From Escherichia coli (GTDB lineage: Bacteria; Pseudomonadota; Gammaproteobacteria; Enterobacterales; Enterobacteriaceae): a stretch of 64,000 bases of DNA. Position 1 is the stretch's first letter; each line of letters starts with the position of its first letter. A program made the position numbers. The stretch lies in the NCBI RefSeq assembly GCF_003018255.1, contig NZ_CP027441.1; one strand, 5' to 3'. Below, in pieces: positions 32,107 to 38,100 of the stretch.

Positions 32107-35100
32107 TCATTTCAATAAACCTGGCGACCTCTGCCATCCCTTCCTGATTTTCAGCCTGCCAGCGTTCAGCACGCAGGCGCCGGGCTTCGTTCTGCATGGT
32201 CGTACTGACCAGACCGGAGATATTCACGTCATACGCCTTGAGCAGCTGATAGCTGTCGCTGTCAACTGTCACTGTAATACGCTGCTTCATAGCACACCTC
32301 TTTTTGACATACTTCTGGTATGCATATCAGTATATATTATTATGATGCAAAAATCAGCGCGTTAATACACATACTGTTATCTGGCTTTTAGTAAGCCTTA
32401 TTTATTTTACCTTACATTATGTTAACCAATAAAAATTAAAATCAGACTTATAAAAACAAAGCGTAATTATCGAATGACCATTTCCGGCAGATCCGATTTT
32501 TCTGTTATTTACTGGTTTCCGGAAGTGTACCACGCTGAGGAAATCATCATATCGCTGTTTTCCGCCCCTGCGTGGCGCATCACAGGTCAGGGAAATAACA
32601 CAACATATAGTGTCATAATCAGCCAAATGAAGCACTACATGTTGTACTTACAGGAGGCGGCGTTGTGTGGGGGAGAGGAAGATCCGTGACAGCCGGAAAC
32701 CGGATCTGTGCGGCAGAGAACGGGCAGGAGATATGATAATTAAGCGGCGTACATAAAATCATATCAGATATGATTTTCACCATTAGATATAAAACCATAC
32801 CTGATATTATCAGAAATCAATAATACACAAATCATGCAGGATATGATTTTTACCTTTAATAACATTATCAGATGGAGCGTGCAGGATGGATGAAGAAAGG
32901 GTGTTTTCACTCAGCTATGAACAACTGACCCGGTTTGCGGAACGACGCATCCGGGAATGCAATCTGGACAGCCAGGGCGCGATTTATCTCTGCGAGTCAG
33001 CCAAAGCCGGAGCCGTGCTGATCTTCTGGCATGAACTGGCCATAAATGGCTATGCCTCAATGAATGCCATAAAGAGACAGGAGCTCATTGACGCCGACTT
33101 TCAGCGCCTCAGAAAGCTCATCTGGCCGGAGGATGACTGGAAATGACTCAGAGCCGCCGACCGTCGCCACTGCAGCGGAGAGTGCTGATTGTGCTGGCTA
33201 CCCTTGATGAAAAACGGCCAGGCCCCGTGCTGACGCGGGACCTGGAACGGGTGCTGGAGCGAAGCGGGGAAACCCCGGTCTACGGGCCAAACCTGCGCGC
33301 CTCCTGCCGTCGTCTGGAGGATGCTGGCTGGCTGCGTACCCTGCGCGCTCCGAACCTGCAGCTGGCAGTGGAGCTGACGGACGCCGGCCGGGCCGTGGCA
33401 CAGCCTCTGCTGCTGGCAGAACAGGACCGCTTCCGGGCAGAACAGCGTGCGGCAGAAGTCGTCGTACTGCCGCTGGTCCCGGCAGCAGGTCTGCCCGCAG
33501 ACGGCACTTCTGCCACTGATCTGGCGGTGCAACTGAACGGCATAACGTATCTGGCCTGCCGTGGGGATTTTGTGGTGCGTCTCGACGGCAGCACCTGTCT
33601 GCAGTTATGGAATAAAGAAGGCAGGGTGGTACGCCGGGAGGGCGATCCGCTGGAAGTGGCGCAGTGGCTGCAGGCCTGTCACGATGCAGGAATGGAGGTT
33701 CGTGTGCAGGTTAATGAAAGCATCACCCCGTAAAAACATGCCAGCACGATTTACACATCATCCCATGGTGGCAGCCGGTTAACTTTCCTGCGCCACCAGT
33801 GGAAAGAGGCCGTGAGCAGTCCGAACAAAAAACCATCTGTGATACTTATAATAATGGCCTCACCTGCCACCATTCCTGACGGCCCCCAGTAGATAAACCA
33901 CATTGCACATCCCCAGGAAATGCCCCATAAGCTCCCCATCAACAGCGTGACCTGCCAGAACGGCATAAAGGGTAATGGCGGAAGCCGGATACCCAGCCGC
34001 CAGAGAATACACAGAAGAGGAGGGGCATAATTGCTCCGCCACATCTTTTTGCTGTCCATCAGGGCAATGGCTCGGGCTTTTTTCTGCTCAAAGGTCACAG
34101 GAGCACCTCCGTTCCATGATGTAAACGTGACACAGCTTATTGTTATTGATTATTATTATCATGCTGTGGTTATGTTGTCATGCATCAGTACACTGACAAA
34201 AGTGCAAAAGAAAGGAAAACAGGCAGATGAACAGAAAATATTATTTTAATAATATGTGGTGGGGATGGGTGACGGGGGGATATATGCTGTATATGTCATG
34301 GGATTATGATTTTAAATACAGATTACTGTTCTGGTGTATTTCTCTCTGCGGAATGGTTTTGTATCCGGTTGCCAGATGGTGTATTGAAAATACAGCCCTG
34401 TAATTTACCCGGCTTCATTGCTGGAACAGCGTTTTTTTACTGATACTCTCGGAAAAATGGGATTACTTGCGGTTTATACGGGTACTGTTTTCATATTATC
34501 TCTTCCGTTAACTCTGATATATATTCTTTCTGTTATCATAAAGGCTGTCTGTAAGATAGACAGCCTGTCTTATATATTATTTAAATGCCCCAGAACTTAT
34601 TCGCTTTTTCCACAAGCGTTTCATCAATCAGTGCACCGGTGACAGCCATCAGTAAACCATACTCGATAATGCCTAAAGCGCTTCCGGTAAGAATACTGAA
34701 GACCAGAGCAACAAGAGCCGTTGCGGCATTACCTGCTATGATGGTTTCTGTTTTAACAAAAAAAGGACGCCAGTTACCTGTCCGGGCAGCCTTACCAAAC
34801 TCAGTGATCCAGTCGGCAAAATTTGTAATTTTTCCTGCATATCCTAGTCCCCGACTGAATCTGTTCAGATTAAACGATATATCAGACAGTTTCACAGCCA
34901 TAGCTCCCGCAGGAAAGAGTACCTGCGAGAGACGATATTCTGCACGGTTCATATATTCATCCGGGGCAGGAATATCGGCCCGGTACAATCTGTCCGGGCC
35001 GGATGGGTAATTTACAGGATGTTCGCGATGGATTTAGCCAGCTGGTCTTCCAGTACAGGCTTCGCTTCTTCAAATTTCAGGTTAACCTTGTTGGCATTAG

Positions 35101-38100
35101 ATACCACACGGGTCTGGTATTTATGCTGATTTCCGGTTGATGTGCTGGTCTGCACTTTTGCACCGGAGGTTCCCTGGCGGAGAGCAGCAACATTATCAGT
35201 TCTGACTTCAGATGTTGTCCGCTCTGCAATCTGCACATCCGTGATCATGGTGTAGTTAATATCCTCCACCATTGCATCGGCAGCCATACCAATCAACCCT
35301 GTGGCAATCCCTACACCCAGCGCCGCACCGGCAGAGCTGGAGTTATATCCTGTGATGCCGGTGCCCAATGCTGCACCGGCAATGGCACCTTCATAACCGC
35401 TGTTCAGCCAGGTCTGGGACTCCCGCAAATCCATTTTGTCTGCCTTCAGGACATTGGCCTGGATCCAGTAGTATGCCTTGTCAGGTGAGGTCACAACCTG
35501 GTAGCCTTTGGCTTTAACGGCATCACTGATTTTTGCCTGCAATCCGCTCATATCCTTGTCAGATGTGTTTTTGATTTGCAGGAAAACGGTGCGTTCACTG
35601 GAAGGCTCCAGCCAGATGGTTTCACTCATCTGAGTTTTAACTTCAAGATTACGCTTCTTGATTGCTGTGCTCATCGCACCACACCCTGAAAGGACCAGAG
35701 TGGAACTGACCAGGGTAACTATCATCAATTTTTTTGTTTTCATCAGAATATCCTTTTAACTAACAGACTCTTTTTTGAACAGTTCTATTACTGAAACTAT
35801 TGCGGAGATATTATAACGATTTATGTCTATAACATAAATAAAGGAAAATTCATGTCCTTCGAAATTAATAAAAATTAATATAAGAGTGTTGGTGCAAATG
35901 AAAGCATTGAAAAAACAATTAAAAATGATAAAATAAAAGTTTTATTCTTATTATGGTTAAATGTATTAGCTCAGAGCTTACAGTTACCGGTTATTTATAC
36001 AGGTATCTGTCAGATTACATCTGGCTTAAATTTTTCTCGGCCCAAATGCGCTTTCCATCAAGTAACGTTTCCATTGGCGTCCGCCCATTGCACATTTTTC
36101 CCTGATGGGTTCGCTCATTATTATAGCAAGTCATATTTGTCGTGTACTGGTCGTAACTCAGTTTTACAGAGTTCAGGACTGCAGACAGTTGGTCCCCCTA
36201 GAATCGGCATTATTGTCAGTATGGCTACTGGATTCGCTGACCATGCGATTAATAAAGTAATCACTTATTTCTTTAAAGTCTTGTATAGCTCAGGCATCAA
36301 TATCATGACTAGCCCATGAACCATTACTGGCTTCATGTGAATCATTTCTTTTCGAAGGGTAGCCCAACTACCTGTAAAGATAGACTTCAGAAAAAACAGT
36401 GCTCGCCGCAGACCGGTGACCGGGCGAAGCCCGCGAACTGGCGAGGAAGCGCAATGTATCTGTAGTTACAGTGAGCAGGTACGCCCTGAAGCCCTTATAA
36501 GCGGTTGTGTATGCTGTTTCCCCTAGGATGATTTATCCACATATCCAGAGGTTCGATCCAGTAAACAGATCCATGAATGATCAACAAAGGATCCATTAAA
36601 GATCCCCATATCTCTGCAAACCTTGTCACTCATGGGCCCGGACCACGATCACATAAGCTGTGGCATGTTACTGATAAACTGTAACATGCTAATAATAAGC
36701 TGTATTCAGTAATCCATATACTGAAGTAAGTTAATGACATAAACTATGGTCAGTACGCCAGACTCAGTTGTTAAATACAGGCTGCAGGTTTTTCTTCAGT
36801 CAGTTAGCGGGGCTCTGACACACGATTTGCTGTTTATTCTTTTACTGTCCACAGGCAGGAGGCTTTCTGGAAAACGAAAATTCAGACATCAAAAAACTGT
36901 TCGGCGAGGTGGATAAGTCGTCCGGTGAGCTGGTGACACTGACACCAAACAATAACAACACCGTACAGCCTGTGGCGCTGATGCGTCTGGGCGTCTTTGT
37001 ACCGACCCTTAAATCACTGAAGAACAGTAAAAAAAATACTCTGTCACGTACTGATGCCACGGAAGAGCTGACACGTCTTTCCCTGGCCCGTGCAGAGGGA
37101 TTCGATAAGGTTGAGATCACCGGCCCCCGCCTGGATATGGATAACGATTTCAAGACCTGGGTGGGGATCATTCATTCCTTTGCCCGCCATAACGTGACTG
37201 GTGACAAAGTTGAACTGCCTTTTGTCGAGTTTGCAAAACTGTGTGGTATACCTTCAAGCCAGTCATCCCGCAGGCTGCGTGAGCGCATCAGCCCTTCCCT
37301 GAAGCGCATTGCCGGTACCGTAATTTCGTTTTCCCGTACCGATGATAAGTACACCCGGGAATATATCACCCATCTGGTACAGTCAGCCTACTACGATACT
37401 GAGCGGGATATTGTGCAGTTACAGGCAGATCCCCGCCTGTTTGAACTGTACCAGTTTGACAGAAAAGTCCTTCTCCAGCTTAAGGCGATTAATGCCCTGA
37501 AGCGACGGGAGTCCGCCCAGGCACTCTACACCTTTATAGAGAGCCTGCCCCGGGATCCGGCTCCGATATCACTGGCGCGGCTGCGTGCACGCCTCAATCT
37601 GAAGTCTCCAGTATTTTCCCAGAACCAGACGGTCAGACGGGCAATGGAGCAGTTGCGCGAGATTGGATATCTTGATTACACGGAGATCCAGCGGGGGCGG
37701 ACAAAATTCTTCTGTATTCACTACCGGCGTCCCCGGTTAAAAGCGCCGAATGATGAGAGTAAGGAAAATCCGTTGCAACCTTCACCTGCGGAAAAAGTCA
37801 GTCCGGAGATAGCGGAGAAGCTTGCCCTGCTTGAAAAACTGGGCATCACTCTGGATGACCTAGAAAAACTCTTCAAATCCCGCTGAACATAAACTGTAGT
37901 CAGTGAAAAGCGCTCTTTTACTGACTACAGCTTATATTAACAGGTGCAGTCAGTGGTCTGCTCACTGTAGTTTATATTCAGATTCCTGCTGTGCACTCTG
38001 TAACTGAGCTGCCATCTGCCTGCTCCTTACGTAAGTGACCCCGTAACCTGATGCTGAGGCATTGCTCCCTTCATAAAACATGACTTACTCACTACAGCTT

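Follow-up and report, generated by a model that had tools for sequence, protein, structure and literature searches.

An orphan traT gene among F-type transfer gene remnants, between the RepFIB replicon and a colicin Ia tail, on an Escherichia coli IncI/IncFIB hybrid plasmid

Results

The orphan traT gene and its protein

The window is the 64,000-nucleotide stretch of Escherichia coli contig NZ_CP027441.1 that was analysed here. It carries a complete 243-codon traT open reading frame (ORF) on the minus strand (35012..35743), encoding 243 aa. The translation covers the whole PF05818 profile (1-214 of 214, E 9e-82, 274.4 bits against a curated cut-off of 31), and the solved TraT structures 9fs5 and 9e2v match residues 21-243 (E ~1e-129). 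It has a lipoprotein signal peptide with the lipobox LSGC, and its Cys21 corresponds to the first residue of the mature chains in the solved structures.

A preliminary description of the locus had reported traT as complete, without intact transfer genes next to it, and as left behind after loss of the transfer operon. The full-length ORF and profile match bear out the first point. The second was confirmed by tblastn over the whole 64-kb window with TraH, TraG, TraS, TraT, TraD, TraI, TrbF, TrbB, TraQ and TrbA of F and pTA142-3 as queries: traT and a 75-residue TraG fragment were the only matches among F-type tra homologues, and no intact flanking tra genes appeared on alignment. The gene does not lie between traS and traD, since a 211-bp traS remnant is found upstream and traD is absent; this position is a feature of context rather than of the TraT protein family. 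Loss of an F-type transfer operon around traT is thus supported. Relatives of the plasmid carry an IncI-type (MOBP/MPF_I) transfer system, so that conjugation as such was not lost.

The TraT of F and R100 (structures 9fs5, 9e2v and 9fsm) has the same 243-aa length and the same lipobox. F TraT is 90.5% identical to the protein in the window, with 23 substitutions that form clusters at 111-151 and 177-181, and F traT is embedded in its tra operon whereas the traT studied here is not. The structure, exclusion specificity and complement resistance of TraT have been described (PMC11733297), with specificity-determining differences reported in the extracellular region. The two substitution clusters may fall in this region, so that this TraT probably differs from F TraT in its exclusion specificity.

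Remnants of traS, an IS481-family element and traG

Directly upstream of traT lies the 3' remnant of an entry exclusion gene, traS (35744..35954, minus strand), corresponding to about residues 101-169 of the 169-aa TraS of the pINV/pOkiPb type. The remnant is frameshifted near 35855, and TraS 101-135 and 140-169 match in two different frames by tblastn. Its region is 82% identical to the traS-traT of a pINV plasmid, and its proximal ~100 bp are shared with the end of traS in pOkiPb01701_2 at 95.5% identity. Identification as the F-plasmid type of traS was rejected, as neither alignment nor tblastn gave a match; judged by sequence, the remnant is of a different traS type (pINV/pOkiPb). The earlier observation that no intact traS-like ORF precedes traT holds.

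This remnant retains the AGGA ribosome-binding site of traT and contains a putative promoter on the minus strand, with a perfect -10 hexamer (TATAAT, 35815..35810) 67 nt upstream of the traT ATG and a weak -35 hexamer (TTTATG, 35838..35833). The hexamers were read manually. The block that contains them is 86-100% conserved with pINV traS, compared with 51-80% for the distal part of the remnant. A strict sigma-70 consensus scan found no minus-strand promoter upstream of traT, and the proposal therefore rests on the manual reading and on conservation. Most likely, traT keeps its own promoter inside the retained traS 3' end. In F, traT has its own promoter located within traS. Promoter and terminator activities around F traS and traT were reportedly examined by Jalajakumari et al. 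1987 (J Mol Biol 198:1). One recent paper places traS and traT under the distant PY promoter (PMC9849209), which is absent from this locus.

Further upstream, an IS481-family insertion sequence has left its 3' end (35962..36126, minus strand), consisting of the last ~38 transposase codons (ORF 36015..36134) and the terminal ~53 bp, which end in ...TGT at 35962. An E. coli chromosome carries an annotated IS481-family element that matches this fragment at 95% identity, and PGAP labels the fragment 'IS481 family transposase, incomplete, missing N-terminus' in NZ_CP027451.1 (99.9%). Only one IS481 terminus was found; a complete DDE transposase and both terminal inverted repeats are not present.

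The third remnant is an internal fragment of an F-type traG (36130..36344, minus strand), spanning about residues 660-735 of 938 with both gene ends missing. It shows ~81% nucleotide identity to annotated traG in >4000 plasmids. DNA alignment revealed a frameshift and a 12-13-bp deletion relative to full-length traG genes; by tblastn, TraG 660-712 matches at 75% identity, after which the frame changes. Between this fragment and the RepFIB region lies a 21-bp junction (36345..36365), delimited by the ends of the blastn matches, with 0 variable columns in the seven copies compared. Residues 660-735 of traG, residues 101-169 of traS, and traT are collinear, all on the minus strand, and the reading frames of traS and traG are both truncated and frameshifted. 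Homology of the remnants was seen solely at the DNA or tblastn level. Pfam assigned no family to the short ORFs 36015..36134 and 36074..36319 or to two halves of a colicin immunity gene described below; for the IS481 fragment, this is because it is too short.

The RepFIB replicon and the formerly unassigned stretch

The plus-strand RepFIB replicon starts with a conserved upstream and origin region (36366..36908), recognized by megablast homology, a DnaA box and iteron-like repeats. This region shows 91-97% identity in thousands of IncFIB plasmids, with matches that begin at query position 623, 626, 656 or 749, and the sequence upstream of repA is 97.4% identical to pO157. A perfect DnaA box, TTATCCACA, was read directly from the sequence at 36533..36541. 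Iteron-like repeats at 36695..36712, 36739..36754 and 36838..36854 recur downstream of repA (families D2, D4 and I3-I5), and repeats thus flank repA on both sides. The gene itself (36909..37886, plus strand) encodes a RepFIB initiator of 325 aa (Pfam Rep3_N, E 7e-11), annotated as a RepB family plasmid replication initiator in all relatives. MOB-suite types plasmids with the identical region as IncFIB. RepFIB is an iteron-controlled replicon of the Rep3 type, and replicons of this class do not depend on antisense RNA.

Some 700 bp between traT and the RepFIB origin had been regarded as unassigned, with only weak ORFs in 35750..36480 and possibly a hidden gene remnant or regulatory RNA. The ORFs are indeed weak, as the interval consists of three gene remnants and the start of the RepFIB upstream region. 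It can nevertheless be assigned almost base for base: the remnants account for 35744..36344 except for gaps at 35955..35961 and 36127..36129, and the last ~115 bp (36366..36480) belong to the RepFIB upstream region. Hence, the suspected gene remnant is confirmed, as three different pieces: the traS 3' end, the end of an IS481-family transposase and the internal piece of traG.

The regulatory RNA did not find support. A functional small gene or RNA in 35750..36480, for instance one that controls RepFIB replication or regulates traT, would suit an AT-rich, non-coding stretch beside a replicon with one promoter-like site on the plus strand (35907..35934). Yet promoter-like sites were fewer than expected from shuffled sequence (3 versus 6.0), and Rfam gave no match in the stretch at E <= 1. 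Searching 33500..39000 at a permissive threshold returned a single chance-level match to a plant miRNA (E 0.95), outside the stretch. Moreover, nearly all of 35744..36344 consists of degraded traS, IS481 and traG homologues, each frameshifted, the stretch is missing from most IncFIB plasmids, in which homology starts at 36366 or later, and the RepFIB class functions without antisense RNA. We consider a hidden functional element very improbable.

Downstream of traT: F-type spacer, colicin Ia tail and immunity pseudogene

On the other side of traT, native F-type sequence continues for ~110 bp (34898..35011, minus strand), comprising a 59-bp spacer and the first ~14-18 codons of a small 86-aa ORF, which follows traT in some F-like plasmids. 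From 34890 upward the sequence is 95.5-97.5% identical to pOkiPb01701_2 and pCFSAN004179G. This downstream segment was found only beside traT, in 72 RefSeq E. coli plasmids. Matches to intact colicin Ia genes end at 34897. Accordingly, the colicin Ia remnant said to abut traT is real, but the F-type segment intervenes.

The remnant (34581..34897, minus strand) comprises the last ~105 codons of colicin Ia, a part of the pore-forming domain. It matches residues 493-602 of structure 1CII (E 2e-55), covers positions 93-184 of 185 in the Pfam Colicin profile, and is 92-94% identical in nucleotides to intact cia genes over 34800..34897 only. The translocation, receptor-binding and complete pore-forming domains of the 626-aa protein are missing. 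In the 123-aa 'colicin-like pore-forming protein' of RefSeq (34581..34952), the first codons of the small F-type ORF are fused in frame with the colicin tail. Conservation of this fusion frame was rejected, as five relatives are out of frame; the in-frame fusion is a feature of the subclade of this plasmid. The tail is also not a copy of the intact colicin gene of the plasmid (~18503..20383), with which it shares no DNA match and 38% aa identity in the pore domain. Sequence comparison assigns the remnant to the Ia type, whereas the intact gene belongs to another, Ib-like type.

The colicin tail converges on a colicin Ia immunity pseudogene (34227..34565, plus strand) with a nonsense codon at position 59 and a frameshift, read against the intact 111-aa genes of pO104_H7 and pJNE120442-1. 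A hairpin with an 11-bp stem (34542..34566) lies between them. The terminator scan reported it on the plus strand, and it is also a probable terminator for minus-strand transcripts that leave traT.

Occurrence in other plasmids

The segment 34000..37000 is shared at 99.9-100% identity with pO113 (NC_007365.1 / AY258503), NZ_CP027451.1 and pO104_H7, and with NZ_CP027451.1 the collinearity extends to at least 49.6 kb of the window (99.9%). pO113 is the large plasmid of the LEE-negative STEC O113:H21 strain EH41. Genes and junctions in pO113 and its relatives are the same as in the window, with no material difference. The full 3-kb arrangement is present in 42 PLSDB records and 52 RefSeq E. coli genomes; it is an ordinary arrangement, already known from dozens of public plasmids. 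Records of the pO113 type already annotate traT, the IS481 pseudogene and the colicin-like ORF. In contrast, no RefSeq feature marks the traG fragment, the traS fragment, the F-type spacer of 110 bp or the immunity pseudogene. In the 2009 paper on the pO113 sequence, traT has 0 occurrences, and neither RepFIB nor colicin is mentioned.

Seven plasmids of differing backbone share an identical sequence at both junctions (34989..35011 and 36345..36365). The same junctions recur in the 42 PLSDB plasmids and in 52-72 RefSeq E. coli genomes, which points to a single old rearrangement as the likely origin. A misjoining of separate F-type and IncI/FIB plasmid pieces during assembly might be suspected from the patchwork of repeats and IS fragments, typical sites of misassembly. 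However, dozens of independently sequenced complete plasmids have identical junctions, among them pO113 (NC_007365) from the Sanger era and assemblies made with long reads, which come from several countries and hosts. An artefact is hence the least credible of the alternatives, to the point of being negligible.

Intact F-type tra operons with the same traT allele occur in pTA142-3, pOkiPb01701_2 and pCFSAN004179G. Their TraT proteins are 98.4-99.2% identical to that of the window in aa sequence; their traT genes show 95.5-97.5% nucleotide identity and are followed by the same spacer and small ORF start. These plasmids have a complete traG, traS or another entry-exclusion gene, traD and traI, whereas the window retains a 215-bp traG piece (~81%) and 211 bp of traS at lower identity than traT. 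The lower identity of these pieces suggests a donor related but not identical to the three plasmids.

Selection on traT

Among orphan traT copies sharing both junctions, there were 11 synonymous and four non-synonymous differences (dN/dS ~0.10). The observed 11:4 ratio compares with a neutral expectation of ~3.5:11.5 (binomial p 6e-5), although part of the bias might stem from recombination between orphan copies and intact F-like traT alleles instead of purifying selection in place. traT was an intact coding sequence in 30 of the 30 relatives listed. The colicin Ia immunity gene was broken in four of six distinct copies compared, by several different inactivating lesions; pO113, in which this segment is identical to the window, was not scored separately. 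Nucleotide divergence among the orphan copies was 2.0-2.5% in traT and 2.4-2.8% in the flanking remnants.

The similarity of these two divergences would be expected if traT were a neutral hitch-hiker of no use to host or plasmid, still intact because the rearrangement is recent and the essential RepFIB is adjacent. The traT module always accompanies RepFIB, and the scan gave no consensus traT promoter, which would also fit. Neutrality is nevertheless unlikely, in view of the strong synonymous bias, the absence of traT pseudogenes from the 30 relatives, and the lesions in the immunity gene and the frame loss in the colicin tail that accumulated over the same time span. The preliminary proposal that traT is retained for serum resistance or surface exclusion was thus supported in part, as to retention by selection, for which the sequence comparison gives modest support.

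Discussion

We are quite confident that the locus is a scar of plasmid recombination, in which only traT is intact and apparently under purifying selection, and the rest is decaying junk and the RepFIB origin. In our reconstruction, an F-type transfer operon contributed ~1.45 kb (traG'-traS-traT plus 110 bp), which came to lie between the RepFIB replicon and a truncated colicin Ia gene. The source would be a lineage of F-like plasmids found in bovine and STEC E. coli, and the colicin piece would represent the IncI colicin Ia module in a second, truncated copy. Within traS, an IS481-family element would have inserted, and a later deletion would have removed the 3' end of traG and the 5' portion of traS together with most of the element; the order of insertion and deletions is part of the reconstruction. 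On the RepFIB side, a deletion or illegitimate join would have truncated traG at about codon 660, and another would have joined the sequence 110 bp past traT to colicin Ia at about codon 520.

Transcription of traT probably starts at its own promoter in the traS 3' end and stops at the hairpin between colicin tail and immunity gene. With both elements, which we infer, TraT would still be produced, as a decameric outer-membrane lipoprotein. Purifying selection on traT could then act through surface exclusion of F-like plasmids with the same TraT specificity, through complement resistance, or through both. Stand-alone traT genes are known from Enterobacteriaceae chromosomes, such as a genomic island of E. 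coli ED1a (PMC11733297). In contrast to that chromosomal island gene, the traT described here is located on a conjugative IncI/IncFIB hybrid plasmid and is flanked by scraps of tra genes.

Beyond annotation, the importance of the locus is little. Exact boundaries are now given for four unannotated remnants, and the RefSeq 'colicin-like pore-forming protein' at this site is a chimeric ORF that some relatives do not keep in frame. Studies of LEE-negative STEC routinely count traT as a virulence marker for serum resistance, as in 34 of the isolates of PMC10025531. On plasmids of the pO113 type, the gene behind this marker has outlived its F-type operon and stands alone; it is not a sign of an F transfer system.

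More speculatively, the orphan TraT might be a weapon between plasmids, by which the IncI/IncFIB hybrid blocks F-like plasmids with the same allele in shared bovine hosts; we regard this as possible but rather doubtful. The TraT allele of pTA142-3 and pOkiPb01701_2 is 98-99% identical in aa sequence and hence probably has the same exclusion specificity. If the idea is true, exclusion would be uncoupled from the transfer system of the plasmid itself, and the IncF replicons of the excluded F-like plasmids would be competitors of RepFIB. An orphan TraT that excludes related F-like plasmids would then be a small example of exclusion genes kept for plasmid competition.

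Gene remnants around traT

The traT gene is complete (35012..35743, minus strand, 243 codons), both in the ORF list and in the raw sequence. Its product aligns with the Pfam TraT profile over the profile's full length (E 9e-82), carries, as expected, a lipoprotein signal peptide with a lipobox (…LVLSG|C21), and over residues 21-243 matches the TraT decamer structures 9fs5, 9e2v and 9fsm (E about 1e-129); it would be a decameric outer-membrane 'cork' lipoprotein. The RepFIB initiator was also located (36909..37886; Rep3_N in Pfam). Hence, the preliminary description was right in its coordinates and main observation, an orphan traT followed by about 700 bp of unassigned sequence before the RepFIB origin.

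This stretch contains gene remnants, as the preliminary description had allowed, all on the minus strand and in F-type operon order. An internal traG fragment (36130..36344, minus; about residues 660-735 of 938) has a frameshift and a 12-13-bp deletion, and at the nucleotide level is ~81% identical to traG genes annotated on more than 4000 plasmids. Next to it lies the 3' end of an IS481-family element (35962..36126, minus; 95% identical to a chromosomal copy), which is a partial transposase in the PGAP annotation of NZ_CP027451.1, a near-identical plasmid (99.9%), followed by the frameshifted last ~70 codons of a traS of the pINV/pOkiPb type (35744..35954, minus). A 21-bp junction (36345..36365) separates the traG fragment from the conserved RepFIB upstream region, which runs from 36366 onward, is common to thousands of IncFIB plasmids at 91-97%, and includes a perfect DnaA box (36533..36541) and iteron-like repeats that recur 3' of repA. 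A tblastn search of the whole 64 kb with ten F-type Tra/Trb proteins yielded nothing beyond traT and the traG fragment, in line with the reported lack of intact transfer genes. A regulatory RNA had also been proposed here, but an Rfam search of the stretch upstream of traT returned no RNA family.

At 38171..39302 and about 39250..40200 (minus), 3' of repA, a tyrosine recombinase gene and an ISL3-family transposase gene are both frameshifted. Both are annotated pseudogenes in NZ_CP027451.1, and the RepFIB replicon therefore has decayed mobile-element genes on either side.

Downstream of traT, the colicin Ia remnant is real, but it does not abut the gene as had been described: 110 bp of F-type sequence past the traT stop intervene (34898..35011), made up of a spacer and then ~14-18 codons from the start of a small ORF. 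This 86-aa ORF sits after traT in pOkiPb01701_2 and pCFSAN004179G, F-like plasmids with intact tra operons. At 34897 colicin Ia sequence takes over, with the last ~105 codons of that gene; beyond this base intact cia genes no longer align, and the encoded tail matches residues 493-602 of 1CII. The RefSeq 'colicin-like pore-forming protein' (34581..34952, minus; 123 aa) is a chimera in which ~14 codons of the small-ORF start are fused to this tail. The fusion is in frame in the window and pO113, and only in the pO113 subclade; a 1-bp difference puts the two pieces out of frame in five relatives, so the colicin-like ORF has arisen by chance. Convergent with the tail, the immunity gene for colicin Ia (34227..34565, plus strand) has been inactivated by a frameshift and by a nonsense codon at position 59. 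Other lesions inactivate it in some relatives, and two (pO104_H7 and pJNE120442-1) retain an intact 111-aa gene.

A 1.28-kb direct repeat (32917..34193 and 16833..18111; 96% identity) spans the DUF6404 gene plus two hypothetical genes that belong to the IncI colicin module, so that this backbone segment is present twice on the plasmid. One copy adjoins an intact colicin gene of Ib-like type (about 18503..20383), the second the Ia remnant, and the 16 kb between them could potentially be lost by deletion across the repeat.

Plasmid background and origin of the locus

The 3 kb at 34000..37000 share 99.8-100% identity with 13 complete plasmids of E. coli, among them pO113 from LEE-negative STEC O113:H21 (NC_007365.1), and 97-98% with about 30 further plasmids; in total, 42 PLSDB records contain at least 80% of this interval. 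For at least 49.6 kb, NZ_CP027451.1 is collinear with the window, at 99.9% identity. MOB-suite typed the relatives as IncFIB with IncI-gamma/K1 or IncI1 and MOBP/MPF_I transfer, and one as IncFIA/FIB/FIC with MOBF. The plasmid is therefore conjugative by an IncI-type system, and it is only the F-type operon around traT that is gone. The pO157 plasmid (NZ_CP040315.1, locus positions 1..2916) has the same ccdAB-integrase and RepFIB flanks, but three different small genes in place of the colicin/traT module, and hence the ccdAB-RepFIB interval is a variable slot among STEC plasmids.

The traT allele belongs to a distinct clade (65 PLSDB records at ≥95% nucleotide identity), whereas about 3900 other traT genes reach only 80-90% nucleotide identity to it. 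It also occurs in complete traG-traS/eex-traT-traD-traI operons on F-like plasmids of cattle and STEC; the TraT proteins of pOkiPb01701_2, pCFSAN004179G and pTA142-3, all with intact operons, share 99.2%, 98.8% and 98.4% amino-acid identity with that of the window. In the simplest history, a segment of such a plasmid would have been captured beside RepFIB and an IS481-family element inserted in traS; a later deletion would have taken out the bulk of the IS together with the 5' part of traS and the 3' end of traG, and the two outer ends would have been fused to RepFIB on one side and a truncated colicin Ia module on the other. This order of steps is inferred. The junction stretches 34989..35011 and 36345..36365 show no variation across seven plasmids with different backbones, which indicates that one ancestral event made the arrangement.

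Probable expression of traT and possible selection on it

A perfect -10 (TATAAT, 35815..35810) with a weak -35 lies 67 nt 5' of the traT ATG, within the retained traS 3' end, and is followed by an AGGA ribosome-binding site. A strict consensus promoter scan did not report this candidate. The proximal traS block is 86-100% conserved with a pINV traS, whereas the distal remnant is only 51-80% conserved, and homology of the window to pOkiPb01701_2 likewise stops after ~100 bp of traS. Both patterns fit an internal traT promoter. Older work on F gave traT a promoter of its own. Promoter and terminator activities around traS and traT of F were the subject of a 1987 study by Jalajakumari et al. A recent paper assigned traST to the distant PY promoter (PMC9849209). 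Across otherwise unrelated traS alleles, the last ~85 bp (35744..35830) are 90-92% conserved, unlike the hypervariable remainder, as would suit a conserved traT promoter/leader embedded in the traS end. The native traT terminator is missing, and an 11-bp-stem hairpin (34542..34566) is the likely stop for traT transcripts.

Among orphan copies sharing both junctions, traT shows 11-12 synonymous versus 4 non-synonymous differences (dN/dS about 0.10; p = 6e-5 under neutrality for at least 11 synonymous among 15 changes), which gives modest support to retention by selection, although its overall divergence resembles that of the remnants on either side, and the pattern could be due in part to recombination with intact F-like alleles. 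Against the traT of F, dS is about 1.2 and dN/dS 0.045. All 30 relatives shown list the gene as intact CDS, and it stayed intact over the same period in which the immunity gene and colicin tail decayed. TraT mediates allele-specific surface exclusion and is linked to complement resistance (PMC11733297); from the sequence, either could be the selected activity in the orphan gene.

Public records already contain this locus and annotate traT, the IS481 pseudogene and the colicin-like ORF. Virulence typing of LEE-negative STEC routinely reports traT (PMC10025531), and traT genes of the F clade that lack a tra operon are on record (PMC11733297). Our analysis adds the exact limits of the traG, traS, F-spacer and immunity remnants, the chimeric nature and unconserved frame of the annotated colicin-like ORF, and a small selection test on traT. 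The locus is an ordinary mosaic-plasmid scar.
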